Shown here: in pieces, positions 30,514 through 57,043 of the stretch
Position numbering within the stretch: the first letter of the stretch is position 1
How the letters are laid out: every line of letters begins with the position of its first letter
Source of the DNA: an uncultured Anaerolineae bacterium
Lineage (GTDB): Bacteria > Chloroflexota > Anaerolineae > VGOG01
Assembly: GCA_964390805.1 (NCBI GenBank)
Contig: CAYMKL010000019.1
Location: 9,352-73,351 of the forward strand
Length of the DNA: 64,000 bases
Direction of reading: 5' to 3'
Notes under the pieces: model-generated
The model's database searches: none
Told to the model about the DNA's origin: nothing
Seen by the model: only the letters and a program-made list of their open reading frames with translations
Position numbers and translations under genes: made by a program

Positions 30514-30530
30514 CCTCCAACCTCCAACCT

Positions 30531-31919: not shown

Positions 31920-31975
31920 AAGGTCGGCGCTTATTGTATATCAACTGGGAGAAAAAGTAAAATACGAGAATGTTC

Positions 31976-36169: not shown

Positions 36170-36241
36170 TTCCTCAACATAGCAGCAAAGCTACGAATTG
36201 GGCGGGGAGAGCATCCCCGCCCAATCTTCAAAATGTGCTTC

Positions 36242-36361
36242 GTGACTACTCACCCTCCCGCAGGTTTAGCCCTCTTTGGGTCGAAACTCGCTAATCCAGT
36301 TCTTGACTCAGGGGCAAAGCATCACCAATCGCAACCTGCGGGAGGGTGGCTAGGTAGTGAC
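36242..36361. mobile_element. MITE/REP-like palindromic element, copy 2
   Basis: gtgactactcaccctcccgcaggtt ... aacctgcgggagggtggctaggtagtgac; flanked by imperfect direct repeats aatcttcaaaatgtgcttcg / aatcttcagaaagcgcttcg. Confidence 0.5.
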
Positions 36362-36577
36362 GCCTAATCTTCAGAAAGCGCTTCGCACAGGGCAATCAGA
36401 AACCAGGCTTCGTCCTGAGGCCTGTCCTGAGAGTAGCCTAAGGGCTCAGCCCGAAGGGTTTTTCGCTTGATAGGGCATTGTGGGTGCTCCAGAACGTGGT
36501 AAGCTCCGCGACGTAGTCACTAGCTTGGCTCAGACGACGAAAAACCCGGTTTCTCTATGTACGTCTAGGAGGGCAAC

Positions 36578-37330: not shown

Positions 37331-37335
37331 CAATC

Positions 37336-39204: not shown

Positions 39205-39317
39205 GTGGGGTGGCTGGGTTGCCAAATGCTGATTCAAGAGAACGGGGCTGTCCCGGGTTTGGGACAGCCCCGTTTTTGCTTGCGACGTGTCATGCTCTGA
39301 TGGTAGCTCTAATTCGT

Positions 39318-40745: not shown

Positions 40746-40770
40746 GTACATTCCTCCTTGCCCTCGCTGC

Positions 40771-41619
40771 TCATAACCTCGATCTCGTATCCGACATGTC
40801 CTGCAATCCATCTCCCAGCAGGTTGAAGCCCAATACAGTCAGCACGATGGCCAGGCCGGGGAAGAGAACGATGTGCGGTGCAGCGAAGATTGCGCCGCGC
40901 CCCTGTCCAAGCATGGCTCCCCACTCCGGGGTCGGCGGCTGCGCTCCCAATCCCAGGAAGCTGAGCCCCGCCGCCTCCAGAATCGCGGTGCCAATCCCAA
41001 GCGTTGCCTGTACTTGCAGAGGGATCAAGCAACTGGGCAGGATGTGCCGCCACAACAGGCGACCGGGCGGGACGCCGATGGCTCGCGCTGCCACGATGTA
41101 GTCTCGCTCCTTGGCCGCCAACACGCCGACGCGCATCAGGCGGGCGTAGGTCGGAATGGCGGTGAAGGCCACCGCGTACAGCACGTTGGTCAGCCCGCGG
41201 CCCAGGATGACGATGATGGCAATGGCCAGCAGCAAGGTGGGAAATGCCTGCATCACGTCCATGAGGCTCATGATCAGACCGTCTGCCCAGCTACCCCGAT
41301 AACCGGCCATAGCCCCCAATAACCCGCCTGCGACCACGGCCAGCAAGACGGAGGTCACACCCACTCGCAAGGAGAGCCGAGCACCGCAAATGATCCTGCT
41401 CAGGTTGTCGCGCCCCAGCTCGTCTAGTCCCAGGAGATGCTGGGCGGACGGCGGCTGCCTTCGCTCCAGAAGATGTTGCTCCAAAGGGTCGTGCGGGGCC
41501 AGCTGGGGGGCGAACAGGGCGGTGAGAGAAACACAGGCCAGGATCGCCAGCCCAGCCACGGCTCGCCCATTCCGTAGAAACCAAGGCCAGCGCCCCTTCG
41601 TGTTCAACGTCTCATTCAT
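40771..41619 (-). CDS. ABC transporter permease, DppC/OppC/NikC type
   Basis: Binding-protein-dependent transport motif, 6 TM; overlaps the upstream permease by 8 nt. Confidence 0.85.
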   Translation of the reverse strand: MNETLNTKGRWPWFLRNGRAVAGLAILACVSLTALFAPQLAPHDPLEQHLLERRQPPSAQHLLGLDELGRDNLSRIICGARLSLRVGVTSVLLAVVAGGLLGAMAGYRGSWADGLIMSLMDVMQAFPTLLLAIAIIVILGRGLTNVLYAVAFTAIPTYARLMRVGVLAAKERDYIVAARAIGVPPGRLLWRHILPSCLIPLQVQATLGIGTAILEAAGLSFLGLGAQPPTPEWGAMLGQGRGAIFAAPHIVLFPGLAIVLTVLGFNLLGDGLQDMSDTRSRL

Positions 41620-42631
41620 AGCGGATGCGAGGGTCCAGATAGGCGTAGCAGACGTCGGTCGCCAGGTTGATCAGCACAAAGAGCAGGGCGGCGACCAGCA
41701 CCACGCCCTGGACCATCGGGTAGTCGCGGGCCAGCACCCGGTCCACGATGAGCTGGCCCATGCCAGGCCAGGAAAAGATGGTCTCGGTCAGGATGGCGCC
41801 GGAGAACAGGCTGCCCAGTTGCAGCCCGATCACGGTCAGGATCGGCGGCCAGGCGTTCCTCATGGCGTGACTCCCAAGCACGGCTCGCTCCGACAGGCCC
41901 TTGGCCCGCGCGGTGCGAACGTGGTCCTCAGCCAGTGCATCCAGCAGGCAGGAGCGAGTCATGCGGACGATGACCGCCAGGGGCACCGTGCTCAGCGTTA
42001 TCGCGGGCAGGGCTAGGTGCCGCAGCGCGTCGGCAAGGGCGGTGAGATTGGTGGTGAGAATACTGTCCAGGATGTAGAAGTGAGTGATTGGCTCTAGCTC
42101 GATCCCGATGGTCAGCCGACCGGAAGGGGGCAGCCAGCCCAGCCGGTAGCCAAAGAGATGGCCGAGCAGCAACCCGAGCCAGAACAAAGGCATGGACACC
42201 CCGATCAGCGTCCCCCCGCTGGCGAGCAGGTCAAGGAAGGAATGGCGACGGTAAGCGGCCAGGACGCCGAGAGGTATGCCCACCACACAGGCGATGACCA
42301 TGGCCGCCAAACCTAGCTCAATGGTGGCTGGAAGCCTTTGGGCGAGCTCAGTGATCACCGGCAGGTTGGTCTTGATCGCCTGCCCCCAGTCGCCGCGAAC
42401 AAGGCTCCCCACGTAGCGCAGGTATTGGGCGAGAAGCGGCTGATCCAGCCCCCTTTCCGTCCGGAACCGCTCCACTTGCGCTGCGGTGGCGTGCTCGCCC
42501 AGCATCACCTGCACCGGATCGCCGGGGATGAGCCGCAGCAGGGCGAAGGTGAAGAGCGAGAGGCCCAGCAGTGTGGGCAGTAGCAGGGCCATGCGTCGGG
42601 CGATGTGTCGCGTCACGCTCGATCTCCTCAT
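41612..42631 (-). CDS. ABC transporter permease, DppB/OppB/NikB type
   Basis: N-terminal IARRMALLLPTLLGLSLFTFALLRLIPGDP typical of DppB. Confidence 0.85.
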   Translation of the reverse strand: MRRSSVTRHIARRMALLLPTLLGLSLFTFALLRLIPGDPVQVMLGEHATAAQVERFRTERGLDQPLLAQYLRYVGSLVRGDWGQAIKTNLPVITELAQRLPATIELGLAAMVIACVVGIPLGVLAAYRRHSFLDLLASGGTLIGVSMPLFWLGLLLGHLFGYRLGWLPPSGRLTIGIELEPITHFYILDSILTTNLTALADALRHLALPAITLSTVPLAVIVRMTRSCLLDALAEDHVRTARAKGLSERAVLGSHAMRNAWPPILTVIGLQLGSLFSGAILTETIFSWPGMGQLIVDRVLARDYPMVQGVVLVAALLFVLINLATDVCYAYLDPRIRYE

Positions 42632-42691
42632 AACCCAAACGTGCGACGCGCCTCGGAGGTGCGTCGCACGCTGATCATCGTGCCAGACAAG

Positions 42692-44338
42692 CTATTCCCC
42701 CTTGAAGCCTCCAAAGTAATAGGTCCAGTGAACGAAGCTGCCCGTGTGGCCGACGTGATACGGGTTGTCCTTGTCCCACCAACGCTCGAAGTTAAAAGCC
42801 ACCGCCTCGGCGTCCAGGTCGGTGCCGTCGTGAAACTTGACTCCCTTGCGGAGATGGAAAGTCCACGTCAGCAGGTCATCTGATACCTCCCAGCTTTCCG
42901 CCAGAGCGGGGACGACGTTGGTGGTGCCAGGCTCGAAAGCCACCAGCGGCTCGAAGATCTGGGCGCAAACCATCAGCGACTCGAAGTCGCTCACGTCTAC
43001 GCAGTCCAGGCCCACCGAGTCGCCACTGCGACCGAAGATCAGGCCGTTCTTGCCTTCCACAGAAGCAGGGTAGAAAAACTCCTGGCTGAAGGGACTGGCC
43101 TTAATGCCTTTCACCGTCTTCCTGAAGGCGATGGCCGAGCTGTTGTGAACGATGGGCACGGCGGGGACGTGATCGTGCACAAACTGGTTTGCCTGGTCGT
43201 AGAGGGCCTGCCGCTGAGCCTTGTCAAGGGTCGAGCCGGCCTCCTGCAGCATCTGCACCAACTCAGGGAACTTGAGCCCCAGACTGTCGTCCGATCCAGC
43301 GCCGAAGAACGTGTCCAGGAAATTGATGGCATCGGGGTAATCGGCCATCCAGCCATTCAGGAAGAGATCGGCCTCGCCAGCATAGACCTTGTCCAGGTAA
43401 GTGCCCCAATCCAGAGTCACGATCTCCGCCTGGATGCCCACCGCCGCCAGGTCTGCCTGGAGCACCTCGCCGACCCGGTCGGGGTTGGGGAAATAGGGCC
43501 GCGAGATGGCCATGACCCACAGCGTGGTCTGAAATCCATCGGGGTAGCCAGCCTGGACCAGCAGTGCTCTGGCTTGGTCAGGATCGTAGGGCCAATCCTG
43601 CAATCCGTCAGTGTGGCCAAAGATGTGCGGCGGTACGAACTGGATGGCTGCCTCAGCCGTGGGCGGATAGAAGGCCTGGACGAGCTCTGCCTTGTTGATG
43701 GCCATGGCCACCGCCTGTCGCACCCGCTGGTCGTCGAATGGCTCGTGGGCGCGGTTGATGCCCAGGAAGCCGACGTTGAACGGTGGGCGGAGGTAGACCT
43801 CGATGTTGGGGTCAGCCTGGGCAGCGGGTATGTCGTCGGGGGACAGGTTGTCCACGCCGTCCACAGTGCCGGCCTGAAGCTCCAGGAAGCGGGCGGGGGC
43901 CTCTTTGATGGCGCGATAGGCGAGCGTCTCGAGTTCTGGTTTCTCTCCCCAGTAGTCGTCGTTGCGCTTGAGGGTGATGTGATCGTCCGGCACCCATTCC
44001 ACGAACTTGAAGGGTCCAGTGCCAGCGGGATTACGGATCAGGTCCCCGCCTCCGCCGTACTTCTTGATGTTGGCCGGGCTCTGGGGGCCAAAGGCGGGGA
44101 AGGCCATCTTCTGCAGGAAGGCGGCGTCGGGGCGGTTGAGGGTGAAGCGGATGGTTCGGGGGGCGATGGCTTCGATGGAGGCGAGGAGGCTTTGGGGTGC
44201 GGAGGGAGGTGTGGATGACATGGGTGGTGAGGGAGCAGGAGTTGTGACCGGGAGACAAGAGATGAAAAGAAGGGCCAGGACAAGAACAGCGACCACATTC
44301 CAGAGGTGGGGATTATGAAGACGAGAGAGCATCGTCAC
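42692..44338 (-). CDS. ABC transporter substrate-binding protein, family 5 (peptide/nickel/opine type), lipoprotein-like
   Basis: 548 aa, signal peptide + SBP_bac_5 signature around FHDGTDLDAEAVAFNFERW. Confidence 0.85.
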   Translation of the reverse strand: MTMLSRLHNPHLWNVVAVLVLALLFISCLPVTTPAPSPPMSSTPPSAPQSLLASIEAIAPRTIRFTLNRPDAAFLQKMAFPAFGPQSPANIKKYGGGGDLIRNPAGTGPFKFVEWVPDDHITLKRNDDYWGEKPELETLAYRAIKEAPARFLELQAGTVDGVDNLSPDDIPAAQADPNIEVYLRPPFNVGFLGINRAHEPFDDQRVRQAVAMAINKAELVQAFYPPTAEAAIQFVPPHIFGHTDGLQDWPYDPDQARALLVQAGYPDGFQTTLWVMAISRPYFPNPDRVGEVLQADLAAVGIQAEIVTLDWGTYLDKVYAGEADLFLNGWMADYPDAINFLDTFFGAGSDDSLGLKFPELVQMLQEAGSTLDKAQRQALYDQANQFVHDHVPAVPIVHNSSAIAFRKTVKGIKASPFSQEFFYPASVEGKNGLIFGRSGDSVGLDCVDVSDFESLMVCAQIFEPLVAFEPGTTNVVPALAESWEVSDDLLTWTFHLRKGVKFHDGTDLDAEAVAFNFERWWDKDNPYHVGHTGSFVHWTYYFGGFKGE

Positions 44339-44344
44339 TGCCTT

Positions 44345-45967
44345 TCAGCTGGAGTCGCTCAGTTCCACTGAGGAATCTGGAAAGAAACCTACGAGTTTCT
44401 CCAATAGTGCTTGTCGCTGATTGCGACTCAGCTTTCTCTTACTGGAGCAGTGAGCTACCTCAGAGACCTCGGTGATCAGTGCCTTTGGAGATAATCTAGA
44501 TTTATCAAAGAAATAGACAACACCAAATTCACGGATGGCCTTATCTACACCCTCTGGCGAAGGATAGCTTGTTACCACGATAATCGGAATTCCTTTTTCC
44601 ATCGCTACACGTGCCAGTTCCCACCCTTTCTTGAACTCGCCATCCAATTTCACGTCCAGCAGAAGAACAAAGGGGCTACATTCTTCCAGCTTTCCCAGCG
44701 CTTCCTCGAATGTTCCAGCCTGTTCACACTGATATCCTACCTCCGTTAATATGGAATCCAAGTGCTTTCGGTACCAAGGGTGATCTTCAACGATCAGGAC
44801 CGGTGCTGAAGGCAATGCCAGCGATTCAGATTCGAGTCCTCTAGACGCAGGCCCCTCCTCTGCACCTGTCGTTCTCTCTTCTTTCACTGCCCTGGCACGC
44901 AGTTCCAGGAAATCCAGAGCGTCGCTGCACGAAGTTTGCTCAATCTCCGTTGCAATCCTAGGGGGCAAATCTCGGCCGCCAACAAGCTCACGCTGTTCAG
45001 CAACCAACTTGAGGTCATTGGTACCTAGTGCGATGGCGAGCGCCGGTGGATATTCGCCGATGTCAAAACTCCATTTCTTGGCCTGTTTGACGTGCCTGTC
45101 AAAGAGTGGACGGAAGAAGTCCAGATATGGAACACCGTTCAACTGTTTTGTTGGCACAGCAAAGTACACAGTGCATTCCAGAACTAAGTTTCCGCCCCTA
45201 TTGGCCTTGACCACGAAAGGGTCTTGTACGAAGTAGTGCTTGATCCAATGGCCTAGTGAGACAGGGTTCTTCAGGAAAGTCACTGGCCTCTGTTTGAAGA
45301 TCTTTGCTGGTGCCCGGTTCTTATAGAAGTCCATAGCATCAACCAGGCGGAGTAGCGAGGCCAACAGGCCCACGCGGATCTCCTCTCCGTCATGCGGTAC
45401 CGTTCGGTAGCACCAGCAATCTCGCTCTCTCAAGTCGGCTTTGCCATGCCCTCGGCAAATCGCCATAAGATAGGGCCGGTCGTCATCTGTAATTCCATCA
45501 ATGGGAGTTGTCTCGTAGTGATATATCCAGTAAGCACTGAGGAGACTGTGGGTTTCCCGAATCTGCGCTCCGGTGTCCAGGCCAAAGAGCTGATAGTTCT
45601 CTATTGTATCGCATAGTCCTTGTGGACAAAGAGACAGACGAGCCACCAAATCGGGCAATATGTCTTCCTCAAACGCCTTTCCATCAAAAAACATCCCTAG
45701 ATCATGCAAGTAAGCTGAAGCAGCTAGAAGGAAGGCCTCGTTCGCGCTCAGTTCAAGTCCGAATTCCTTCTTCAGCCGGCCAAGGAGGCGGATGAGATTG
45801 TCAGAGTGCACTTGATTGTGCAGTGTGAATTCGGGCAGAAGAGGGGTGCCCAAACTTGCTATCTCTGCAAGACCCTCTCTTATCTTCTCAATGTCACCGA
45901 CTCGCTCTACACTAAGCCGAGTCAAGATCTTCTTTATCCTGGCCGGCATGTTCCCTGAAGGCGGCAT
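44345..45967 (-). CDS. HD-domain protein with C-terminal response-regulator receiver domain
   Basis: N-terminal H...HD motif (SAYLHDLGMF); C-terminal VLIVEDHPWYRKHLDSIL...VLLLDVKLDG...VVTSYP REC. Confidence 0.6.
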   Translation of the reverse strand: MPPSGNMPARIKKILTRLSVERVGDIEKIREGLAEIASLGTPLLPEFTLHNQVHSDNLIRLLGRLKKEFGLELSANEAFLLAASAYLHDLGMFFDGKAFEEDILPDLVARLSLCPQGLCDTIENYQLFGLDTGAQIRETHSLLSAYWIYHYETTPIDGITDDDRPYLMAICRGHGKADLRERDCWCYRTVPHDGEEIRVGLLASLLRLVDAMDFYKNRAPAKIFKQRPVTFLKNPVSLGHWIKHYFVQDPFVVKANRGGNLVLECTVYFAVPTKQLNGVPYLDFFRPLFDRHVKQAKKWSFDIGEYPPALAIALGTNDLKLVAEQRELVGGRDLPPRIATEIEQTSCSDALDFLELRARAVKEERTTGAEEGPASRGLESESLALPSAPVLIVEDHPWYRKHLDSILTEVGYQCEQAGTFEEALGKLEECSPFVLLLDVKLDGEFKKGWELARVAMEKGIPIIVVTSYPSPEGVDKAIREFGVVYFFDKSRLSPKALITEVSEVAHCSSKRKLSRNQRQALLEKLVGFFPDSSVELSDSS

Positions 45968-45997
45968 ATATGTCCTCCGTGTCCGAAGCTCGCGTGT

Positions 45998-46414
45998 TCA
46001 GACGTCTTTGAAATACTGTGGTGTACGGACAGCTATTGCTACCTCTTGTCTCAGTTCCTCAGCATCGAATTTGTCCTTTGGAATAACATCCCACACACCA
46101 TAGTCCCTAAAAGCCCTGCGCGTGCGTTCCTCCAAGTGGGCAAATGCGCTTAGAACGATAACCCTGTTGCCTGGTAGGATTTGTGCCTGTTGCAGGCCTT
46201 CTACTAGGCGAAAGCCTTCTTCGTCTTTACCTACTCCGGAGACAAGGTCAATGTCAACGATCACCAAGTCGAAGTCTGTATCCCCGAACAATGGTACAGC
46301 TTCGCGCAAGGATTTCGCGGCTTGAATCTCATAGTCCTCACCAAGGGCAAGTTTTACCTCTCTGATCCACTCAGCCTTGTCTTCCAAGTGAAGTATTTGT
46401 TTCCTCAGACTCAT
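45998..46414 (-). CDS. Single-domain response regulator (CheY-like REC)
   Basis: ILHLEDK, DLVIVDIDL (Asp), VLSAF, IPKDKF (Lys). Confidence 0.8.
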   Translation of the reverse strand: MSLRKQILHLEDKAEWIREVKLALGEDYEIQAAKSLREAVPLFGDTDFDLVIVDIDLVSGVGKDEEGFRLVEGLQQAQILPGNRVIVLSAFAHLEERTRRAFRDYGVWDVIPKDKFDAEELRQEVAIAVRTPQYFKDV

Positions 46415-46429
46415 TTGTCACCCTCCTGT

Positions 46430-46891
46430 CTAGTTGCGAGAGAGGATTCTCTCAAGTTCGCGAACACGTTGGTCCATCTGCTTTCGACCATATCGAGGTC
46501 TCTCTACACGATTCAGTCGCTCAGCCCTGGACAGTTCGTCCACCACCAACTGCAGCAATCCCTCGGGGTCATATGGTTTATCGGCACAATCATAAACCCC
46601 TGCCTTGAAGAGGAGGCGCAATTTCTCATTCTCTTGAAAGACAGGAAACATTATCACGAACCGCCATTGCTTGCCGAAAGATTCAATGGTGCTCAAATTG
46701 CTTGTGGCCAAATCCAAGCCGACAAAGATCAGGTCAAAGCCTTGTGACCACTCCTCTGGGAGACACCATTTTCTTACCTCCTCGAAGCTCGTTGCAGTGA
46801 ACACATCATATCGCTCCTGCAGAGCCTCCTGGGCGAATTGAAGCCACTCTAGATGGCGATCAATCAACAGAATGCGTTTCTGAGTAGCCAT
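46430..46891 (-). CDS. Divergent receiver (REC-like) domain protein
   Basis: ILLIDRH, DLIFVGLDL, CADKPY; start at ATG 46891 with GGAGGAGG RBS, 2 nt after the stop of the upstream kinase gene. Confidence 0.55.
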   Translation of the reverse strand: MATQKRILLIDRHLEWLQFAQEALQERYDVFTATSFEEVRKWCLPEEWSQGFDLIFVGLDLATSNLSTIESFGKQWRFVIMFPVFQENEKLRLLFKAGVYDCADKPYDPEGLLQLVVDELSRAERLNRVERPRYGRKQMDQRVRELERILSRN

Positions 46892-46895
46892 CTTC

Positions 46896-49800
46896 TTATT
46901 CCTCCTCCTGCTGTTGTTGAGCGGGGAGGCGGAGTAAGAAGATAGTTCTTTCTTCATTGCTCTCCAGGACAGAGACTTCACCGCCATGTTCCCGCATAGT
47001 GGTACGTGCACCCCACAGACCCAGTCCGTAGCTCTGTTCCTCTTGTGCTACTTCTTGACGAGCGGAGAATAGGTTAAAGATCTCCTCCCAGTGTTCGTGT
47101 GGAATTGGGGGGCCATGATTCATAAAGGCCAATTCGACAAAGCCATCCCCTGCAAGCTGGCCATCAACTCTTATCTCGTCTAGGTCGATTCCTTCCTCAC
47201 TCATACGTCTTCGAGTAAACTTGACAGCGTTGCTCAGCAACTCTACGATGTAGGTGATGATCTTTTGCACTTGAACGTTGACAGCCGGCAAGTCTGGAGC
47301 GAGATTAGCCTGAATGTCCATATCTGGCTGTTTGCCCAAAGCAGCTAGCGCTTCGTTCAACACCAGATTTATGCTAACTTTGGCTTTGGGTTCAGGCCGG
47401 AAAGGTTTGAACAAATCCTCGGCCGCCTTGTTGATGCCTTCACTATTGAGAAGGATATTGTCGAGATCCTCCTGCTGCTGTGGCGTCAAGTCCTGCAATT
47501 GCTGGATAAGCCGGAGGGCACAGGAACGGATGATACCTGACAGGTTCTTTGAGTGGTGAGCCATCTCTGCCGTAACTAGGCCAACGGCGGCATTCACCTC
47601 AGCAGCCAATGCCTTTTCCTGAGCTTCTCTTAGTTGCCGTGTCCGCTTCTCAACCCGTTGTTCCATTTCAGTGTACAGTCTGGCATTCTCAATCGCAACC
47701 GCTGCCTGGTTCGCCAGTAGATGAATCGTTTCTCGGTCCGATTTGGAAAAACCGCGAGATTCGAAGAAGTTCACATACAGAAGTCCAACAGTCCTCCCTC
47801 CAAATATCAAAGGAACTCCAGCAAATGACTTAACTCGCTTGTTCCTAATGAAAGTAGGTTTGACGCGCGGTTCCTTCCCTACATCTTCGGCAAAAACGGC
47901 TTCCTGTGTCCTTGCTATGTGAGCGCTAAAGCCAGTATGGCCCGGAATTGATGGGGCAACCTCAACTTTGCCTCTTCGTATCCCGCTCTCAAATTTATCT
48001 TGTTCAGGATCGTATAGGAATAGGGTGGAGAAGTCTGCGGATGTGGTCATATTGGCATTTTCGACAACTGAACCAAGTACCTCCCCTAATTCGAGCTGTG
48101 AAGTGATCTTCACACCTATCTCCTGAAGACCAGCTAGTTGCCGCGCCCTCCTGGTCTCTCGATCCAGTAGTCGTGCATTCTCAATCGCCACCGCCGCCTG
48201 GCTGGCCATCGTCTCGAGAACTCGTAAGTCATTCTCATCATAGGCATCTTCTTTCTCATAACTCTGAATGCTGATTAGCCCTATGACTTTTTCTGCTTGT
48301 TTCTCTCGATCCCAGACCCTCAGCGGAGTACCAATCCAAGACTTGGTAGCGATTGCCTCGGACAACTGAATACCACGTTCCTTTGCCCACTTCCACACAT
48401 TACCTCTCGAAATCTCGGCTTCTCCTTTATCTATCACATATTCAGTCAATCCATACCTGTACTCTCCTCGTCTACGTGGACGGAAATCTTTGTGATCAGC
48501 TTCAACCTTTTTGCCGGCATCATAAGCAAGCGGAAAACTCACCCCATCTTTATCCTCATCGTAAAAAGCGATTTGGATGTTTCGGACATCCATGAGCTTT
48601 CCAGCCTGGGTGTGGATTTCTTCCAATATCTCATCAATGCCCAGACTACTCACTGTCCGGCCGATCTCGGTCAAGACCTCAAGTTCCCTAATCCTACGTT
48701 CAAGATTCTGATAGAGCCTGGCGTTCTCGATGGCGATGGCTGCCTGATCCGCAAAAAGCTCCAAGAGCAGCTTGTCATTATCAGAGAAATGATGAGGAAC
48801 GGTCAGGTTTACATACAATACGCCCACAACGTCTCCCCCACTAATAAGCGGCAGATAGGCAACCGATTTCATACCCAGGGCCGAGATGTCTTCACGGACT
48901 GCGGGGCCTCCATCAGAGGGTGTGGCCACGTCATTTCCTTCTAGATAGCGAGGGAGCTTGGTCCGAACTACATAGCAACTTGTGCCGTCGGGACGCGGAA
49001 GACGATCTATCCATTCTTCCATCACCCCGGTAGCTATCTGAGGTCTAAACTGATCTGTCGTCGAATCGTACAGCCTGATCGCGCAAGAGGCCTTGTGGAA
49101 GATATCACTGAGGCTCTTTACGATCAGATGCGAGACCCTCTCAAGATTGGATGGTTCAGCAGAGATAGCAGTTGTGACTGTCTGAAGCTGTTCGAGCTGT
49201 GTCGCCCTCTCATCCAGCTCTTGGAAAAGCTGGGCGTGCTCAATAGCAACAGCAGCCTGATCTGCAAGTGCGCGCAGTAAGGCAAGTTCTTCCTCAGTGA
49301 ACTGACGTACGATGATATCATTCAAATAAAGTACACCGGCCGCCCTCTCACCTGCCGACTTGAGGGGAGTACCTACAAAAGACCTGACCCCCTTCTCCAC
49401 AACCTCGGGGTTTGCTCTTGTGTCCACGTGGGTGTCTGGCACAACCCTCTGCTCGCCCTTCTCAATGATAAGGCGAGTGTACCCTTGTTCAGAAATACGT
49501 GGCGCGGGATGCCTGAATTCCTCAGGATATGCATAACTACCAACAATCCTCTCCCCCGAACTGTCAATGACATGCACTACTCCCGACTTTGTCTTTGTCA
49601 GACGCATAGCACCCTCAACAAGTGAGGGCAGAATCTTATCGAGTTTCAAGGCCGCGCTGATCTGGGCACTAATCTGTTGCAGGAGGCTCACCTCATCCGC
49701 ACGATCTCTCAACCCCTGAACTAGTCGTGCATTGTTGATGGCAATAGCTCCCTGGTTGGCAAGAACCTCGATCCTCTCCCGCAGTTCGAGGTCGGTGTCA

Positions 49801-51809
49801 AAGTCGCACCTCTGCCGATAGCCCACGAACATAACCCCTAGAACTTCCTCGCCGACCTTCATGGAAACTGCTGCTGAAGAAATGACCCTCTCCCGTACAA
49901 CGAAGCGTTCTTGGGGCAGCTCCTCGCGAGGGAAATCCCAATCACCAGCCAACACCGCGTGCTTTTGCGCATCAGAAGCGTATACCTTCCCCCCAGTATG
50001 CGCAATCTGGAAGACGACATCGTCCGGGAAGACTTGCGTGGGTATGAGATGAGGAAATCTTCGGTCGCCCACCATAATGGGCGGAAGGGCAAAATCCTCT
50101 CTATCGGCCTGATATTGATACAAATCAACGACGTCAGCCCCCAGTACCTGAATAGCTGTATTGGCGATTTGCTCGAGTGTTTCCTGAAGCACCTCAGGCG
50201 ATTCTTGCAGAGTAGCCAACGATTGCCCCACCTTGTTCAGCCGTTGGATCGTCTGGAGCCGTTCGGAATTCTGTATGGCCACACCAGCCTGGCTGGCAAA
50301 GGTGCCGAGGAGATCAATCTCCCAGGGAGTAAATTCTTCCCTCTTGGTCATACTGTAAACACTCAAGGTTCCCACAGCGCGTTCTGGCCCAGCCAACAAG
50401 GGAACAGCCAACATGGACTGCCATCCCTCCCTCGTCGCCTCCTCCTTTTTCTGAAAACCAGGATTTGCCTGGATATCCAGAACCTGAATAATCCTCCGCT
50501 CGCGAATAGCCTTGCCGGTTACGCTGTGGCCCAGATCTAACCTGGCCTCCTGAGCGTACTCGATACTTATCCCCCGGGAAGCGATGATTCTTGCCTGATC
50601 CCCCGGCTCGTCCACCCGCCACATCGACACTGGGCAACGAGTGAGCCGATGCACAGCATCCACAATATACTGATAGAGGTCCACGGCACCGCCAAGGGTC
50701 TTCTCGCCAATCTTCTTCAAACTTTCCAGTAACTCAGCCCGTTCGATGGCCACTGCCACCTGGTCTGCCAGGGCTATCAACAATTCCACGTCGGCCGCAG
50801 AAAAACAGTTAGGCTCTAGACTGTCTACGTTGATCACACCCAGAGCTGTGCCGTGCGACATGATCGGCACCGATACCAACGAGCGAATGGGAACACCACC
50901 GGCGATAATATCAACGAAATGTGTATCCGTCTTTGTGTCCCGACAAACGTAGGGTTCGCGATTCCGCGCCACCCAACCCGCAATCCCTTCGTCCGGTGCG
51001 CCAGGCGTGAAGGTACGCTCCGCCTTATCCACTGGTACGAGCCCGCCGACACGGGCACGGAAGTGCAATCTGCCATCCTCTTCCATTAGCATCAGAGACC
51101 CATCTCTGGCTCCGACCAAATCTACTGCTCGTTGGAGAATCCTGTCCAGCACCTCTTGTAAGTCAACAGCAGCATCCACATCCTTCTGGATATGTTGAAG
51201 CAATTCGGAATACCCCAGCGCTCTCTCCGCCGTCTGGTATTTCCTGATGCTTTCCACCAAGTAGCGGAAGATAGCTGTAAGCACAAGCAGAACAGCCAGA
51301 TTGGTAAACAGCGAAACAGGGTTGATCAAAGCGAGCCCAGCAGCCTCTGACAGCGATGCGAGAAAGTATAAAACAACGACTTCGCCGTAGATCCCCCACA
51401 TCATGCCCCGAGGGAAGTAGAGGGCCGAGGCAAACAGCGGCCACAGGTAGATGAACCAGAAATAGCTCTCTGCACCACCAGTCATCCAAAGCAAGGCACT
51501 TCCAAGAAACACCACGATCTGAATCCGCACCATTCGAAACTGCGATGTTCCATACAACTCTCTCTTGGTCCGCGAGAATACTTCCCGCACAACAAGGTAT
51601 ACCAGGCAGGACAATAGCCACCCAAGAACCCAGGGGCCTCTCGCTCTCACCTCTGACGAGACGAGATAAGCCGCGTAGACAAATAGCAACAGGAACCACC
51701 CTATGTAGGTCACCGAAAAGTGAACCAGCCTCCACTCTCTCCCCTCTTCTGCCGTACTGAGGGACTTTAGGAACACTTTCGGGCCGGTATTGAAACGATC
51801 ACTTGTCAT
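46896..51809 (-). CDS. Membrane-anchored multi-GAF sensor histidine kinase (1637 aa; about 6 N-terminal TM helices, about 8 GAF domains, HisKA + HATPase_c)
   Basis: Repeated GAF signatures (e.g. LANQAAVAIENARLY recurring 7-8 times); C-terminal H-box AEMAHHSKNLSGI and ATPase boxes LSNAVKFT, GLGLWGARTTMREHGG. Confidence 0.85.
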   Translation of the reverse strand: MTSDRFNTGPKVFLKSLSTAEEGREWRLVHFSVTYIGWFLLLFVYAAYLVSSEVRARGPWVLGWLLSCLVYLVVREVFSRTKRELYGTSQFRMVRIQIVVFLGSALLWMTGGAESYFWFIYLWPLFASALYFPRGMMWGIYGEVVVLYFLASLSEAAGLALINPVSLFTNLAVLLVLTAIFRYLVESIRKYQTAERALGYSELLQHIQKDVDAAVDLQEVLDRILQRAVDLVGARDGSLMLMEEDGRLHFRARVGGLVPVDKAERTFTPGAPDEGIAGWVARNREPYVCRDTKTDTHFVDIIAGGVPIRSLVSVPIMSHGTALGVINVDSLEPNCFSAADVELLIALADQVAVAIERAELLESLKKIGEKTLGGAVDLYQYIVDAVHRLTRCPVSMWRVDEPGDQARIIASRGISIEYAQEARLDLGHSVTGKAIRERRIIQVLDIQANPGFQKKEEATREGWQSMLAVPLLAGPERAVGTLSVYSMTKREEFTPWEIDLLGTFASQAGVAIQNSERLQTIQRLNKVGQSLATLQESPEVLQETLEQIANTAIQVLGADVVDLYQYQADREDFALPPIMVGDRRFPHLIPTQVFPDDVVFQIAHTGGKVYASDAQKHAVLAGDWDFPREELPQERFVVRERVISSAAVSMKVGEEVLGVMFVGYRQRCDFDTDLELRERIEVLANQGAIAINNARLVQGLRDRADEVSLLQQISAQISAALKLDKILPSLVEGAMRLTKTKSGVVHVIDSSGERIVGSYAYPEEFRHPAPRISEQGYTRLIIEKGEQRVVPDTHVDTRANPEVVEKGVRSFVGTPLKSAGERAAGVLYLNDIIVRQFTEEELALLRALADQAAVAIEHAQLFQELDERATQLEQLQTVTTAISAEPSNLERVSHLIVKSLSDIFHKASCAIRLYDSTTDQFRPQIATGVMEEWIDRLPRPDGTSCYVVRTKLPRYLEGNDVATPSDGGPAVREDISALGMKSVAYLPLISGGDVVGVLYVNLTVPHHFSDNDKLLLELFADQAAIAIENARLYQNLERRIRELEVLTEIGRTVSSLGIDEILEEIHTQAGKLMDVRNIQIAFYDEDKDGVSFPLAYDAGKKVEADHKDFRPRRRGEYRYGLTEYVIDKGEAEISRGNVWKWAKERGIQLSEAIATKSWIGTPLRVWDREKQAEKVIGLISIQSYEKEDAYDENDLRVLETMASQAAVAIENARLLDRETRRARQLAGLQEIGVKITSQLELGEVLGSVVENANMTTSADFSTLFLYDPEQDKFESGIRRGKVEVAPSIPGHTGFSAHIARTQEAVFAEDVGKEPRVKPTFIRNKRVKSFAGVPLIFGGRTVGLLYVNFFESRGFSKSDRETIHLLANQAAVAIENARLYTEMEQRVEKRTRQLREAQEKALAAEVNAAVGLVTAEMAHHSKNLSGIIRSCALRLIQQLQDLTPQQQEDLDNILLNSEGINKAAEDLFKPFRPEPKAKVSINLVLNEALAALGKQPDMDIQANLAPDLPAVNVQVQKIITYIVELLSNAVKFTRRRMSEEGIDLDEIRVDGQLAGDGFVELAFMNHGPPIPHEHWEEIFNLFSARQEVAQEEQSYGLGLWGARTTMREHGGEVSVLESNEERTIFLLRLPAQQQQEEE

Positions 51810-51980
51810 TGCTGCACCCTCCGCGTTGACTTACATATCTACCAGTGCTGTGCCATGTCTCATGCATTCAACTATCCCTCTCCACAAGCAACATGCCGCA
51901 CTGCATATTCTCCCCTTCATCACCTAAGAGAGGGAGAGTCTGACCACCCCGAAGCCGAGTTCAAGCAACAGCTTTCCTCA

Positions 51981-52844
51981 CTACTCCTTCTTCCTCACCA
52001 ACGGCAACGTCGCACACCGAAACGCCCCACCCCGTTTCGTCGTCTCGCTATACCCCAACTCGAAAACCTGGATGCCACGGTCACGCAGCAAGGCATTGAC
52101 CCGGCTATTGCGCCTATCGGAAACGACCTTCTCTGGGGAGAGAGCAAGGACGTTGGTGCAAAGGATTCCCTGCTCTTCTTCAGTGATCTCAACAACGGAA
52201 TACCGTTCCCTGAGCAAAGTCAAAGGCGGATCAACGAAGGCGGGGGGGTAAATCACAGCGATATCAGGCGGAGCGAGGTTGAAGACAGCATCAAGGTGCA
52301 CGAAAGGCTCACGCAGACGCATGGAGACGATCTGCCGCGATGGATTGAAGTTCTGGCGGATGAACTCAACTCCCAGTGTGTCCGTCCTCTGGCTCACGCC
52401 TGCGAAAATGACGTCATTATCGAGGATGACGTCGCCCCCCTCCAGGAACCCACCTTCGAAACCTTTCTTTGCCACCACGATGCGGCTATTCAATCGAGCC
52501 AGAATTTGCTCAATCCCTGCGGCCTCGTTCTTGCGAATCTCCTTCTTCAAGTTAGCCAGCACGAAAGTGTCGCCTATAACGACGCCGATATCTCGACACG
52601 CCGATTGAAATGGACAATCTGGCAAAGTGTGCGCCCAGTGGATACGCACATCGTTCTGCTCCAACACCTGCACCAATTTCTGCTCTTCCTGCAGTTGCAA
52701 ATCCAAGCGAGGGGGATCCTGGGCGTAGGTGGTTTCCTGGGTAGTGTTTATAGGCTCGGCCAGGCGGAAGTTGCTTACCGAGGCCATGATGACGTCTGTG
52801 AGGACATCTGTTTCAGATGTGGCATGGATGTGGATACTGGGCAT
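51981..52844 (-). CDS. Amidinotransferase-superfamily enzyme (dimethylarginine dimethylaminohydrolase/arginine deiminase-like)
   Basis: C-terminal GGAFRCATLPL with catalytic Cys typical of the DDAH/ADI superfamily; GAGGAAA RBS before ATG 52844 (ORF track begins at TTG 52856). The overlapping plus-strand 350-aa ORF is judged spurious. Confidence 0.65.
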   Translation of the reverse strand: MPSIHIHATSETDVLTDVIMASVSNFRLAEPINTTQETTYAQDPPRLDLQLQEEQKLVQVLEQNDVRIHWAHTLPDCPFQSACRDIGVVIGDTFVLANLKKEIRKNEAAGIEQILARLNSRIVVAKKGFEGGFLEGGDVILDNDVIFAGVSQRTDTLGVEFIRQNFNPSRQIVSMRLREPFVHLDAVFNLAPPDIAVIYPPAFVDPPLTLLRERYSVVEITEEEQGILCTNVLALSPEKVVSDRRNSRVNALLRDRGIQVFELGYSETTKRGGAFRCATLPLVRKKE

Positions 52845-53360
52845 CGTTTTCCTCAACGTCGTTGCAGTTCAGCCTCGAAAAACAAAAGTGCCCGAAGGAC
52901 AGCATGACACCTTCGCGCACTCTTTTCTGGTTCAACCGTATTTCGCCGTAGTTCCCCAGAGCCACCGGTGTGTCGTTCATTCGCGTGATATTTTGGGATC
53001 CCAAGACGACACGTTGCCTTTTTAGGAAACAGCCTATACACAAGGGAGATAACTATGGAAGAGCACGTTATCGCCCTGTGCGGCCAGTCCGTCTCGGAAT
53101 AGGTCCGCCTTGCAGCATATCGGTGGGCTTTGACAGAGATGGTCATTGAAAGCCGCTCCGTAGCCTGGAAGAGAACACTGTCCCACAGAGAGAATCAGAA
53201 CATGCGTTCTGCTTATGTTGACATACCCCCTCACAATTATACACAAAACTCCCATATATGCAAATCGAATCAGTGGCTTTCTCCCCCTTTGTAAGGCGTG
53301 AGGCTGAGCCGTGACAAATCAAGCGCGTTCTAAACCCTCTTGAGTTAGAGAATCGCCAAT

Positions 53361-53540
53361 GGATTAAGGGTTTCCTTTATTATACCCCCTACAGATTAAG
53401 GATTTTCGGAAGCTCGACTAAGGATTTCCCTTATTGTATCGCGTTCAGATTAAGGATTTTCGGAAGTCCAGACTAAGGATTTCCCTTAATGTTTCTCACT
53501 CAGATTAAGGATATTCGTAACCCAAATTCAGGATTTTGCC
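53361..53540 (+). repeat. AT-rich array of direct repeats (motif GAYTAAGGATTT about 7 times; 54-55-bp super-unit about 3 times) upstream of a promoter
   Basis: gattaaggattttcggaag(c/t)c..gactaaggatttccctta repeated; spacing alternates about 22-23 and 32 bp; local GC far below the window average. Confidence 0.75.
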
Positions 53541-53542
53541 CA

Positions 53543-53570
53543 TTGAATATTCGCAATATTATGTTATAAT
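53543..53570 (+). promoter_or_regulatory. Sigma70 promoter with extended -10 (TTGAAT - 16 nt - TGtTATAAT)
   Basis: Read directly; lies about 70 nt upstream of the lipoprotein ATG 53640. Confidence 0.5.
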
Positions 53571-53639
53571 ATAGTAATGGGAGACACAGTGCTTGATCCA
53601 TCTTTGCCTGATGAGTCATCCGGAAGGACAAGTGGACCA

Positions 53640-54386
53640 ATGACAAAGATTGTCTCTTTGCTTCTGTCTTGCTTCCTTTCGCTGGCCGTCATTGCTTGCA
53701 ATAGGTCAACACCGACGCCCCCAGCACAATCGCCGAAATCTGACGTTGAGTCCATCAGGGAGTACGCTTGTGAGTTAGTCAACTACATCAAGGAATTCCA
53801 GTCTGATGTAGACCAAGTTGCAGCGACAGATAGTAGGAGTGAAGCGGCAGATACCTGTCGGGACATCGAACTAGACTATTGCAGGCTGAAGGAGGAGCAA
53901 TTCCCCTCTGAACTCAAACCCGCTCAGGAATACGCGGTAGGGGAGATCAACCAGTACCTTCATGATGATGACGGGGCTTGGATCTGGGCGGCTATCGAAG
54001 AGAAGGACGACGAATTCAGGAAGCAGCTCAAGAAGGGTATCGCCGACGATGTGTGGAAAATCAGAGACAAGGCTGAGGAGTTGGTCGAGTTCATTGACAG
54101 GCTTTATGAATTCGTTACCGCCTTTGAAGAAATGTCTCAATGGGACGCGGAGTTGGTTAGTGATGAGGAGTGTGACTATCACGAATTCCAAGATATGTCC
54201 TGTCCATCCCGACTTCAGGGGGCAAAGGACTACGTGCTAGGAGGAGCACGTGAGTATTTGGATAAGGTTTGGGATTATTGCAGAGCCAGCGAGACAGGGG
54301 ACGAGGTAAGAGCGCGATTCAAGGAGGATGTCTTCGGATGGGATGGAATGCCGTCACCTAAATGTACAGTTACCCCTACTCCTTGA
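53640..54386 (+). CDS. Predicted lipoprotein, hypothetical (acidic, Cys-containing, low-GC gene)
   Basis: MTKIVSLLLSCFLSLAVIACN signal peptide + lipobox; the ORF-track start 53577 falls inside the promoter, so ATG 53640 is preferred. Confidence 0.5.
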   Translation: MTKIVSLLLSCFLSLAVIACNRSTPTPPAQSPKSDVESIREYACELVNYIKEFQSDVDQVAATDSRSEAADTCRDIELDYCRLKEEQFPSELKPAQEYAVGEINQYLHDDDGAWIWAAIEEKDDEFRKQLKKGIADDVWKIRDKAEELVEFIDRLYEFVTAFEEMSQWDAELVSDEECDYHEFQDMSCPSRLQGAKDYVLGGAREYLDKVWDYCRASETGDEVRARFKEDVFGWDGMPSPKCTVTPTP

Positions 54387-54391
54387 ACGAT

Positions 54392-54566
54392 GCGATGGGA
54401 CATCAACGTGCGCATGAGCACCGTCATCGGCTTCATCTCTCCAGCAGTGGATCAACCTGCTGCAGTACCGCCAGGCCGGTGTGGCCGTGCTGGCCATCGC
54501 CATTGTGGTAGCCACTCTGGACTATGTTAGCGCACGGGTGCGGGAGAAGATTGTGTCGGAGACCTG
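54392..54566 (+). pseudogene. Frameshifted 3' remnant of a phnE-like permease gene
   Basis: WDINVRMSTVIGF then a frame shift to ...WINLLQYRQAGVAVLAIAIVVATLDYVSARVREKIVSET*; nucleotide similarity to the 3' end of phnE (38990-39204). Confidence 0.65.
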
Positions 54567-54602
54567 ATTTGCCGAAAATGGGGAGTAGAAGAGAGCGAGC
54601 GC

Positions 54603-54631
54603 TTGACATATGAGCTTTTTGCCAGTATAAT
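54603..54631 (+). promoter_or_regulatory. Perfect-consensus sigma70 promoter (TTGACA - 17 nt - TATAAT) about 285 nt upstream of the SIR2-STAND gene
   Basis: cTTGACAtatgagctttttgccagTATAATag read directly. Confidence 0.55.
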
Positions 54632-54917
54632 AGCTTAGCGCGACAGGAATGATCCATCCATTTACCCAGAAATAGAGAAGCGTGATGAACATTCGCGAAG
54701 ACCCTTTCGAAGCTCCTAAGGTGTACTGCGAAAGTCAGCAGAGTCAACTTGGTTGGCTTTTGTGGCTTTCTAACGGGCACCGCTGTTCGCCTAGTGCAGG
54801 CGATGGCTGGTGCCCGATTGTCTTTGGCGAGTTAGCGAGGGGTTAGGCTCGATTAGATAAGCAAGAGGAACTTCGAGTATCCTGACGACCTTGCTATTGT
54901 CCCAGAGAGGATATATT

Positions 54918-57032
54918 ATGGCTCTCAGAGATGAAGTAAAGCAACTGATAACCGATGAATTGCTGCCCCGGATTCGTGCGGATCGCTGTATTCTCTTTGC
55001 AGGGGCTGGATTGTCCTACGAGGCTGGTTTGCCAGGTGCGAGCGATCTGGCAAAGAGACTATGGCAAGCGTTGCCGGAACAGGAGAGACCAGACCTATAT
55101 ACTCTGAGCGAGGTGGCCGAGATATACCTGAAGCACCACACCAAACAGGAACTCGTGGATTTCGTAAAGGAGACCTTGCAGCCCATTAGAGGGCAGGTTT
55201 TGGATACCACTACCTTTCGCCTGATCGCTCACATCGCACACCTCAATAGAATCATCATTACCACCAATTGGGATACCTTGTTGGAGGAAGCCATTCAAGG
55301 GGTAACGAAAGTACCTCCAGCGGTTGTCGTGAGGGATATTGACATGGGGAAAGTAGCTGGTGCCCAACACATCATCTACAAAATCCACGGCTCCTGGGAT
55401 GCACCTGGAACTTTCGTGCTAACCGAGAGGGACTATCGGCTCAGATACATGGAGCTGTTTGATCCCAAGTCGCTGATTATGGCTCAGGTACGCACTCTTG
55501 TTGCCGGCAGAGTTATCATCTATGTGGGGTATAGTCTGCGGGACGAGTATTTTGACGAACTGCTGCGGCAAATCAGATTTGCTTTAACCGATCCGCGAAC
55601 AGGAGAGTTCTTAGGCCGGACAAGTTACTTAGTCGTGCCTGAAGAGCCCGAAGAGGAAGCGAGAAGGCGCTTACGGGGGCTACGCATCAAGTGGGTCAAT
55701 GCTTCAGCGAGAGACTTCTTCCAGTTCACCTTCACCGAAACCTCCGAATTTGTCAACCGGCAGAAAGAGCTTGGGATAATACGATCACTAAAAGAACCTT
55801 ATACCGAGATATGCGGCGGTGCGGGCATTGGTAAAACGAGGCTCTTACGTGAATTGGCCTATGAGTATAAAAAAGATAACTGGTTCAATGTGTTCTACAT
55901 AGATTTGAGAAAGGGGACTTCCTTTGATCTTATCAAGGAGCAAAGCAAAGTAGGAGATATGAATGAGCTATCTCAAAGGGGTGGTCTGTTCATTGCAATG
56001 GATTCCCTCGATAGAGCAGGGGAATTTGACGATGTGAAAGAATTCATTCTGAGGGTGCACAGGCCGGAGATCTCTACTCAGCGCATCGTCTGGGCAACCA
56101 GATTTAGTATCCTTGATCAATTGTCGCCACCTGTGAAATTCCGCGCTTCTACGTATCCTCTGAGCCCTATGCTTACATCTTACGTGGCGGAGATGGTCAA
56201 AAACCATGTAGAGCTCATCGGAGGTGAGGTATGGACTCAGGCCAGATATGAGAGACTGGCCAATGAGATCATCACACTGACCGGGACCGGGCATCCGGGA
56301 CTGGTCGTGGAGGTGCTTCGCATTCTGGGCAAGGCAACGCCCCCCTTTGAGGTGGCTTATTTACAGGCAAAGCGTCCGGAAATTCTTTACGCCCTCAGGA
56401 GCAACCTTCGAAGAGAGGTTTTTGGAGAGGAGAATCCGGAAATAGAGGAGGAGTTGAAGCCAGTTACCAGGCTGATGGAGAACATTTTCTGTGCGGTGCG
56501 TGGAGTGACCCAAGGTATGATTGCCGGACTGTTCAAGGATGGTAAAGTGGCGACAGTGGATTTCCAAGATGCCGAGGGCATTTTCAAGGCATTATTGAAC
56601 ACTCACTTGTTGGACAGAGGGGCCTATCCGCTTCACAGCATTGATGCAACCGTTCGATACGTCCTGGCTTTATGCCTGCAAGAAGATAATCGCCAGCGAT
56701 TTGAAGAGATAAATGATTGGTGCATTGGCTACTTTTGGGAGGCAGTACAAAGTAGCAGGGAAGATGTGCAGCGCGCCTATGTCCGGGAGTGGCTCTTCCA
56801 TCACATGACGCGACTAGATGCGGAGACGAGCGCACAAGCAAGATTGGACTTGCTGAAGGATGATTTAAGGCAGATTACGCTACGAAGCGCAATGGGAGAG
56901 AGAGCAAAGGAGACGCTCATCAGAGAGACGACTGGTGATGAGGAACTAAAGAGTTTACTAGTGAAGCACCTGGAAGTCGAACTACTCTCGCTATTACTCC
57001 AGGAGCTTACCAAGCTTACGGTACAGGGCTAG
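54918..57032 (+). CDS. SIR2-like (SIR2_2 family) N-terminal domain fused to a STAND/AAA-type P-loop NTPase
   Basis: SIR2_2 motifs CILFAGAGLSYEAGLPGASDL, IIITTNWDTLLEEA, IYKIHGSWDAPGTFVLTERDY, VIIYVGYSLRDEYF; Walker A ICGGAGIGKTRLL, Walker B GLFIAMDSLDRAGE. Confidence 0.8.
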   Translation: MALRDEVKQLITDELLPRIRADRCILFAGAGLSYEAGLPGASDLAKRLWQALPEQERPDLYTLSEVAEIYLKHHTKQELVDFVKETLQPIRGQVLDTTTFRLIAHIAHLNRIIITTNWDTLLEEAIQGVTKVPPAVVVRDIDMGKVAGAQHIIYKIHGSWDAPGTFVLTERDYRLRYMELFDPKSLIMAQVRTLVAGRVIIYVGYSLRDEYFDELLRQIRFALTDPRTGEFLGRTSYLVVPEEPEEEARRRLRGLRIKWVNASARDFFQFTFTETSEFVNRQKELGIIRSLKEPYTEICGGAGIGKTRLLRELAYEYKKDNWFNVFYIDLRKGTSFDLIKEQSKVGDMNELSQRGGLFIAMDSLDRAGEFDDVKEFILRVHRPEISTQRIVWATRFSILDQLSPPVKFRASTYPLSPMLTSYVAEMVKNHVELIGGEVWTQARYERLANEIITLTGTGHPGLVVEVLRILGKATPPFEVAYLQAKRPEILYALRSNLRREVFGEENPEIEEELKPVTRLMENIFCAVRGVTQGMIAGLFKDGKVATVDFQDAEGIFKALLNTHLLDRGAYPLHSIDATVRYVLALCLQEDNRQRFEEINDWCIGYFWEAVQSSREDVQRAYVREWLFHHMTRLDAETSAQARLDLLKDDLRQITLRSAMGERAKETLIRETTGDEELKSLLVKHLEVELLSLLLQELTKLTVQG

Positions 57033-57043
57033 GAGGGAGAACC

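Follow-up and report, generated by a model that had tools for sequence, protein, structure and literature searches.

The stretch of DNA analysed here (64,000 nucleotides of contig CAYMKL010000019.1 from an uncultured bacterium, below called the window) contains a short module made of an array of seven direct repeats, a promoter, a lipoprotein gene and a frameshifted 3' fragment of the permease gene phnE. The source names of PhnE homologs put the organism in the Anaerolineae. All sequence features listed in the original prediction, namely the repeats, an extended -10 promoter, the lipoprotein gene, the frameshifted phnE fragment and a second promoter, were found to be present. The module is an apparently selected, lineage-restricted repeat-array promoter for a lipoprotein gene of a small family, and it lies inside a block-swapping variable region of the genome. 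With modest confidence we favour a two-part reading, in which the array provides cis-regulatory docking sites for the lipoprotein promoter and the phnE piece is the remnant of an old rearrangement.

The repeat array and the lipoprotein promoter

Using a motif scan, Tandem Repeats Finder and alignment, the array was delimited to seven direct GAYTAAGGATTT units at 53362-53536 on the plus strand. The units start at 53362, 53394, 53416, 53448, 53471, 53503 and 53525, and the resulting start-to-start distances of 32, 22, 32, 23, 32 and 22 bp bear out the prediction of about seven copies with alternating 22/32-bp spacing. Tandem Repeats Finder described the same region as 2.8 copies of a 55-bp period. 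Only a single further occurrence of the 12-mer, at up to two mismatches, was found in the 64 kb of the window, and the clustering of the repeats is therefore not due to chance. The units are of two types, both on the plus strand. B-type units, at 53362, 53416, 53471 and 53525, consist of GAYTAAGGATTTCCCTTAWTGT followed by a variable tail (32 bp), and A-type units, at 53394, 53448 and 53503, consist of GATTAAGGATTTTCGGAAG (22-23 bp). Alignment of 14 units showed that the first 20 nt or so are conserved and the tails variable, and gave the consensus gaTTAAGGaTTTTCGgAAGt for the A type (22-23 bp) and AyT[A/C]AGGrTTTyCCyT-AtTGtAT with a variable tail of 8-9 nt for the B type (31-32 bp). Each B unit reproduces the promoter-proximal unit and, with it, the -35 region.

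The array is followed by a sigma-70-type promoter with an extended -10 element, TTGAAT-16-TGtTATAAT, at 53543-53570 on the plus strand; 6 bp separate the end of the proximal repeat from the -35 hexamer. The lipoprotein open reading frame (ORF) occupies 53577-54386 on the same strand and its product is on record. The probable start codon is the ATG at 53640, which is preceded by the Shine-Dalgarno-like sequence GGAAGGA and gives a 248-aa form. However, the -10 hexamer TATAAT ends 6 nt ahead of another in-frame ATG at 53577, which is conserved in the window, in the relative L069 (GCA_964525665.1) and in the relative L070, and the 63 nt that follow it are free of indels in the three lineages. A leaderless 269-aa form with a 21-residue N-terminal extension is thus possible beside the form led by the Shine-Dalgarno-like sequence.

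The N-terminus of the product, MTKIVSLLLSCFLSLAVIAC, reads by pattern as a signal peptide with a lipobox (...LAVIAC) that agrees with [LVI][ASTVI][GAS]C after a hydrophobic N-terminal signal, and it is conserved in four lineages. The ratio of nonsynonymous to synonymous substitutions is 0.17-0.29 at a synonymous divergence (dS) of 0.24-0.54, with the lipobox and cysteines conserved; judged by this pattern of substitution, the ORF is a real gene. The L069 protein is 79% identical (85% in the coding sequence, dS 0.42). The family is very small: four clusters were found among 5.8 billion clustered proteins, and four proteins in a profile search of 1.84 billion representatives. The product belongs to no Pfam or PADLOC family. 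Its AlphaFold model is all-helical, with a mean local confidence (pLDDT) of 75 and a predicted template-modelling score (pTM) of 0.73; Foldseek found nothing in the PDB at E<=0.001. By eye, the protein appears to hold two repeats of about 95 aa.

Conservation around the promoter exceeds that of the gene behind it. Over the stretch that begins with the proximal A unit and ends at the start codon, 126 of 139 nt are identical between the window and L069 without a gap, and this non-coding identity of 91% lies above the coding identity of 85% and far above what would be expected from dS 0.42. Within this stretch the promoter is identical at 32/34 nt and the leader of the lipoprotein gene at 58/63 nt. 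The L069 array has six units in an A-A-B/A-A-B' arrangement with spacing 23/23/31/23/23, and L070 keeps exactly one unit, the promoter-proximal one, so that the copy number is seven in the window, six in L069 and one in L070. Since the super-units of the window and L069 differ, the two arrays have separate duplication histories, and multiple sites were kept in both. From these comparisons the array is apparently a selected cis-element.

A more modest role would follow if only the promoter-proximal site or sites mattered and the distal units had arisen as neutral, functionless copies when strand slippage or unequal crossing-over duplicated the promoter-proximal 55-bp segment. The origin of the B units, recognisable as copies of the proximal unit and the -35 region, fits such a process, as does the variation of both unit number and super-unit among the window, L069 and L070. 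So does an unrelated intergenic array elsewhere in the window, at 28673-28882. This second tandem array, in which TGGTCAGATGGTCC-like units recur about 14 times at nested periods of 15/23/38/53 bp, separates the stop codon of a GH99 gene from the start of lon; the two genes are on the minus strand. Its L069 counterpart is a short degenerate version in a 52-bp spacer, and the array has therefore expanded in the lineage of the window. Against neutral duplication, both array-bearing lineages keep six to seven units, and the differences between copies fall mostly in the spacers and not in the cores: the first two super-units differ at 5/12 positions of the spacer versus 3/39 elsewhere (mismatches counted by eye). 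Furthermore, two A units of the window are identical at 19/19 positions, and those of L069 are near-identical despite dS 0.42. We regard purely neutral growth of the distal units as possible but rather unlikely.

If the array does serve as a set of docking sites, we infer that each 12-bp core (ATT[A/C]AGGnTTT) would bind one subunit of a putative sequence-specific protein encoded elsewhere in the genome, with the subunits arranged head-to-tail and successive sites roughly two or three helical turns apart. A protein on the proximal site could touch RNA polymerase across the 6 bp to the -35 hexamer, as LytTR-type and similar activators do from this position, and the distal sites would raise occupancy by cooperativity. 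As a perfect extended -10 element is already present, repression or anti-silencing is as possible as activation. Judged by the origin of the B units, the array grew by tandem duplication of a two-site 55-bp A+B segment in the window and of a 77-bp A+A+B segment in L069. Several observations weigh against this reading. The core promoter, having a perfect extended -10, may need no activator. No DNA-binding regulator is encoded among the scanned ORFs of the window, and the proposed role of the array as an operator for a response regulator or silencer is a prediction from sequence. The L069 spacing breaks strict helical phasing. The array at 28673-28882, being largely missing from L069, raises the prior for neutral expansion, which may simply be a habit of this genome. 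Finally, a regulon lends no support: clusters of the motif were found neither elsewhere in the window nor in about 150 kb of the relatives' loci, and three public collections gave nothing related. The two-site pattern had 61 single, chance-like matches in AT-rich taxa in genome_contigs and one chance match, in a coding region, in metagenome_contigs; the A-unit pattern had seven single matches in viral_contigs.

The repeats could also be imagined to act in RNA, with AAGGA/CAGGA as CsrA-type sites in a sponge RNA or a long 5' leader. Seven ANGGA motifs at steps of 22-32 nt reach a density comparable to that of CsrB/RsmZ. However, no promoter-like site was found upstream of the array by a consensus scan of the window, and none was noticed on visual inspection of L069, whose array comes after the phnE terminator. 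No terminator follows the array, and the strong promoter lies downstream of it rather than upstream. Folding of the array was no better than that of shuffled sequence on either strand (z = +1.1 and +0.5), and the search of Rfam at E<=1 gave no family, the sole match being a meaningless snoRNA at E = 0.94. An action in RNA is therefore very improbable. An origin of the repeats as iterons or as the centromere of an integrated plasmid or other replicon is hardly credible. Seven repeats at multiples of about 22 bp do recall R6K/RK2 iterons and parC sites, but Pfam scans found no Rep or Par genes near the array, no similarity was seen to 72,556 plasmid records, and the L069 array stands in chromosomal synteny between phnE and the lipoprotein gene.

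The phnE fragment and the exchange of neighbouring blocks

The phnE 3' pseudogene fragment (54392-54566, plus strand) corresponds to the last 62 or so codons of the gene and starts 6 nt past the lipoprotein stop codon. The predicted homology to the resident phnE (37336-39204, plus strand) was recovered at 54393-54552 against 39016-39198, with 67% nucleotide identity including gaps and E = 3e-12; the homologous 3' end of the resident gene is 39016-39204. The fragment is frameshifted by a 23-nt deletion and does not form a full-length BPD_transp_1 permease with an intact frame, as the intact resident phnE does. There is a hint that homology continues beyond the stop codon of the fragment, as a tandem duplication would predict, but the signal is inseparable from that of the coding part.

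Copies of the fragment in the window, in L069 and in L066 have the same 5' breakpoint and several derived substitutions in common, and yet they are only 69-77% identical to each other. Their lesions are independent: in L069, 25 nt are deleted at a site other than that of the 23-nt deletion in the window, and the L066 copy has gained an insertion of 2 nt and is truncated at its 3' end. The divergence is comparable to the synonymous divergence of the adjoining lipoprotein gene (dS 0.24-0.54). Taken together, the low identity, the independent lesions and the match to dS show that the fragment is an old, neutrally decaying pseudogene that was present before the three lineages split. The idea that it is a recent duplicate of the resident phnE must accordingly be given up. 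The protein encoded by the fragment is 60-69% identical to all 120 PhnE family members and no closer to the resident copy; being equidistant from all 120 homologs, it could not be placed inside the family.

The order of an intact gene, an insert and a 3' fragment would also be expected if an integrative element had entered the 3' end of phnE and brought a replacement end. The 21-nt stretch TGGGACATCAACGTGCGCATG at 54396-54416 (plus strand), identical to 39019-39039 in the resident phnE and lying at the 5' margin of a match whose remainder is 67% identical, would then be one of the attL/attR cores. The same pair is identical in L069 (9446-9466 and 10754-10774) despite about 30% divergence elsewhere. 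The 21-mer is missing from the L066 locus, where the fragment has a substitution and the 2-nt insertion. On the other side, the resident 3' end shares 92-96% identity with its counterparts in L069, L080 and L082. Even in L080 and L082, which have no module, the identity is 92-94%, higher than the average of 88% over the gene. The end of the resident gene is thus orthologous and native, which contradicts integration with a surrogate gene end, and that model was rejected. Moreover, no integrase or recombinase domain was seen in the scanned ORFs from 39204 to 54392 or further, and in L069 the supposed element would measure only 1.3 kb. We consider an element scar decidedly improbable. The 21-nt identity falls in a strongly conserved coding stretch; its simplest explanations, either of them possible, are gene conversion and a chance match in a run of codons under constraint.

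Comparison with the relatives showed how the surroundings of the module have changed. L069 is collinear with window positions 28104-39275 at 87-89% identity. The last collinear stretch is the terminator hairpin region of phnE (39205-39275, plus strand), of which 62/70 nt are identical to L069 9632-9701. Past this terminator the next feature of L069 is the array, followed by the same promoter, the lipoprotein gene and then the phnE fragment, so that L069 jumps from window position 39275-39297 to about 53325. It therefore lacks a block of about 14 kb on the minus strand, approximately 39298-53324, which includes the amidase to DDAH/ADI-like genes (OppC/B/A-like ABC parts among them) and non-coding DNA upstream. 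The junctions of this difference could be located with a precision of about 20-40 bp at best, and they showed no clear target-site duplication. A different block is missing from L086. There the DDAH-like gene is 90% identical and homology to the window stops at 52948; beyond some 560 bases of unrelated sequence, it resumes for 151 bases that correspond to 61143-61298, the SPFH leader. The junction of the DDAH-like gene to the SPFH leader means that L086 is without the whole block 52949-61142. In L080-L084 the match to the window breaks off precisely at the stop codon of phnE, and these relatives contain no module and no second phnE. No intact phnE paralog, whose presence at this position would have pointed to ancient duplication rather than insertion, was seen in the relatives.

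In L064-L066 the array and promoter are replaced: the 3' end of a DDE transposase gene abuts the equivalent of 53648, the third codon of the lipoprotein gene. These loci retain the phnE fragment in a more complete form, followed by a strong promoter and STAND genes different from those of the window and then by homologous radical-SAM and SPFH genes. The transposase carries a YREK-type motif and matches Pfam DDE_Tnp_1 at E = 7e-4 (L066 1-326; the starts of the L064 and L065 contigs), and contigs of several samples end at the junction between transposase and lipoprotein gene. L070 and L071 match only 53522-54393 of the window, a segment that takes in the last repeat unit and the promoter region as well as the gene; they have no phnE fragment, and an ORC/CDC6-like ATPase lies downstream. 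At 370-480 of L070 (JGI 3300057013) a different, operator-like element, about 2.5 copies of the palindrome TGTAGGAAAATTCCTACA, stands just upstream of a TGgTATAAT promoter. Going by this upstream sequence, the regulatory input of the lipoprotein gene is swapped in L070. The gene itself lies directly upstream of variable STAND NTPase genes in three different contexts.

Breakpoints thus crowd around the array, none of them more than about 330 bp away: the right edge of the 14-kb block lies at about 53325, that of the L070 match at 53522, 3 nt ahead of the last unit, and the insertion-sequence junction at 53648. One could take the array itself for a recombination platform, with sites for a transposase, for an integrase arm-binding domain or for a protein that targets block insertion. 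Besides the three independent breakpoints, the multiple same-strand repeats are reminiscent of Tn7/Mu-type end sites or arm-type sites. This is nevertheless improbable. No integrase, transposase or tnsABC-like gene was detected among the scanned window ORFs, the window contains no inverted partner array, and plasmid and phage collections gave no match to the array. In addition, L069 has the array without the 14-kb block, and so the array is not part of that block. There is an equally small chance that the array, beside serving the promoter, anchors a cassette-exchange hotspot, where a multi-site protein-DNA complex would direct or stimulate recombination next to it. Such a function would account for the clustered breakpoints and for the variable STAND-type defence genes that always follow the lipoprotein gene.

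The gene order of the window is phnE, the 14-kb block, an 8-kb block that starts with the module, and SPFH. Since the two blocks are missing independently from L069 and L086, the region is a block-swapping mosaic with no clean island border. The proposal, in the original prediction, of a recombination junction at the phn locus holds in so far as the L069 module follows the intact phnE terminator; the further claim that the module borders an island does not, because the module lies between lower-GC blocks (guanine plus cytosine, GC), each missing from a different relative. The local drop in GC was confirmed, with one correction. The array has 38.7% GC, the promoter and leader 39.2%, the lipoprotein gene 50.2% and the phnE fragment 60.6% (about 50% in the flanks of the fragment). 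The large compositional step, however, is at about 44.34 kb, with 59.3% ahead and 51.4% behind, so that the module lies inside a lower-GC block of at least 20 kb and not at its edge. By gene group, the amidase to opp genes of the 14-kb block have 62.4% GC and the two-component genes 51.4%. The sharpest step of the window (about 62% to 51%) falls at 44338-44345, in the 6-bp gap between the genes of the Opp-like binding protein and the HD-CE/REC protein, which are on the same strand and operon-like.

As to the order of events, we infer that an ancestral rearrangement fused a phnE copy, from about codon 560 onwards, to the end of the lipoprotein gene, and that the phnE piece now marks the stretch downstream of phnE where blocks are gained, lost and replaced between close relatives. 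Compared with insertion, parsimony slightly favours an ancestral order like that of the window, followed by two losses or replacements that occurred independently. The dated fragment and the block differences offer a small worked example of how a variable, defence-rich region was assembled beside a conserved transporter operon. If the array is a real multi-site operator, it would be a clean handle on transcription control in uncultured Anaerolineae (Chloroflexota), for which, to our knowledge, almost no regulator-site pairs are known; natural variants with seven, six, one and no sites before the same gene are already present in the relatives. Neither the operator nor the mosaic overturns current understanding.

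Neighbouring genes in the window

To the left of the module lies a phosphonate-type ATP-binding cassette (ABC) operon with a fused Bmp/phosphonate-binding protein, an ATPase and the 622-aa PhnE that ends at 39204. In the fusion (776 aa, gene 33839-36169) the Bmp/PnrA-like domain is encoded at 34203-35230. L069 is without this part of about 1 kb and has a 408-aa protein; L080 and L082 have the fusion and also carry Bmp-type ABC genes downstream of phnE. The difference is a domain-level gain or loss within the phosphonate operon. After phnE, Pfam scans identified a co-directional cluster on the minus strand with an amidase, Opp-like permeases and binding protein, the HD-CE/REC protein, two REC proteins, a 1637-aa kinase with seven GAF domains and the DDAH/ADI-like enzyme ending at 52844.

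A promoter-like site, TTTGCA-17-TATAAT, at 53236-53264 on the minus strand points left to the DDAH-like gene, divergent from the lipoprotein promoter; it is a match to the consensus only. Ahead of the same gene are a perfect palindrome, CAGAACATGCGTTCTG (CAGAAC-ATGC-GTTCTG), at 53196-53211 and a terminator-like hairpin with a U-run at 52901-52889 (minus strand), about 45 nt short of the start codon. The region 52885-53264 on the minus strand could be a regulated leader of about 385 nt, an attenuator or a small RNA; it had no match in Rfam, and the small ORFs within 52853-53322 belong to no Pfam family. To the right of the module a perfect TTGACA-17-TATAAT promoter (54603-54631, plus strand) precedes a 53-aa ORF (54685-54846), which matches no Pfam family, and the SIR2-STAND, TPR-STAND and radical-SAM genes. 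At the equivalent position L066 has a different, non-homologous strong promoter.

The genes at 54891-63992 form a candidate defence-type cluster, in the order SIR2-STAND (with a ThsA-like N-terminus), AAA/TPR STAND, radical-SAM/SPASM, SPFH and TPR-S24 peptidase. The radical-SAM/SPASM enzyme has weak viperin-like matches. As a variable island this cluster has its left edge inside the phnE fragment (54524-54546). In L064-L066, AAA_22 and other STAND proteins replace its first genes, and a TIR-PNP protein follows SPFH. Another STAND protein, of 1467 aa, is encoded at 10760-15163 and has NNH5, DUF4062 and NACHT-associated inactive restriction endonuclease domains; the 3' half of its gene (13.5-15 kb) falls to 45-48% GC.

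Comparison with known systems

LytTR-type activators bind direct repeats about 21-22 bp apart just upstream of the -35 hexamer, in a layout of two 9-10 bp direct repeats with 11-13 bp between them (PMC2766830). Like the sites of AgrA, VirR, SilA and ComE, the array has direct repeats of about 9-12 bp on one strand, at steps of 21-23 bp and near the -35 hexamer; the A-to-B steps are 22, 23 and 22 bp, which gives three such pairs and one extra unit. Unlike LytTR sites, the array has seven sites instead of one pair, its steps alternate between 22 and 32 bp, and its core ATTAAGGATTT is without the GTT of the LytTR consensus. This consensus, from Nikolskaya and Galperin in 2002, is reportedly [TA][AC][CA]GTTN[AG][TG], and its GTT core is missing from the unit consensus gaTTAAGGaTTTTCGgAAG / AyT[A/C]AGGrTTT. 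Pfam scans of 38 large ORFs of the window found REC-only, HD-CE/REC and ANTAR regulators but no LytTR domain, and no direct-repeat-binding regulator, integrase, transposase or Rep protein was recognised among the scanned ORFs.

Sites of the OmpR/PhoB family, SARP and ComK are arranged head-to-tail at integral helical turns and abut a promoter. The array resembles them in being head-to-tail on roughly one face of the DNA and next to a promoter. However, those families use tandem half-sites of 10-11 bp or AT-boxes, and the helical phasing of the array is lost in L069. Membership of the array in the LytTR, OmpR or SARP site families is thus not demonstrable. In plasmid iterons and parC-type centromeres, between five and ten direct repeats recur at intervals that are multiples of about 11 or 22 bp, in some cases on either side of a promoter; the array differs from them in its chromosomal context, with no Rep, ParR or ParM genes in scans of the window and no plasmid match. 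The own promoter and terminator and the GGA motifs in hairpin loops that characterise CsrB/RsmZ sponge RNAs were not found.

The phnE fragment resembles the displaced gene ends at integration sites of genomic islands. It departs from these in that the resident gene end is native, no integrase was found in the scanned ORFs, the fragment predates the split of three lineages, and the flanking blocks have been exchanged independently. What it has in common with them is the overall order, in which an intact gene is followed by inserted DNA and by a decayed copy of its own 3' end, with variable defence-type cargo beyond.

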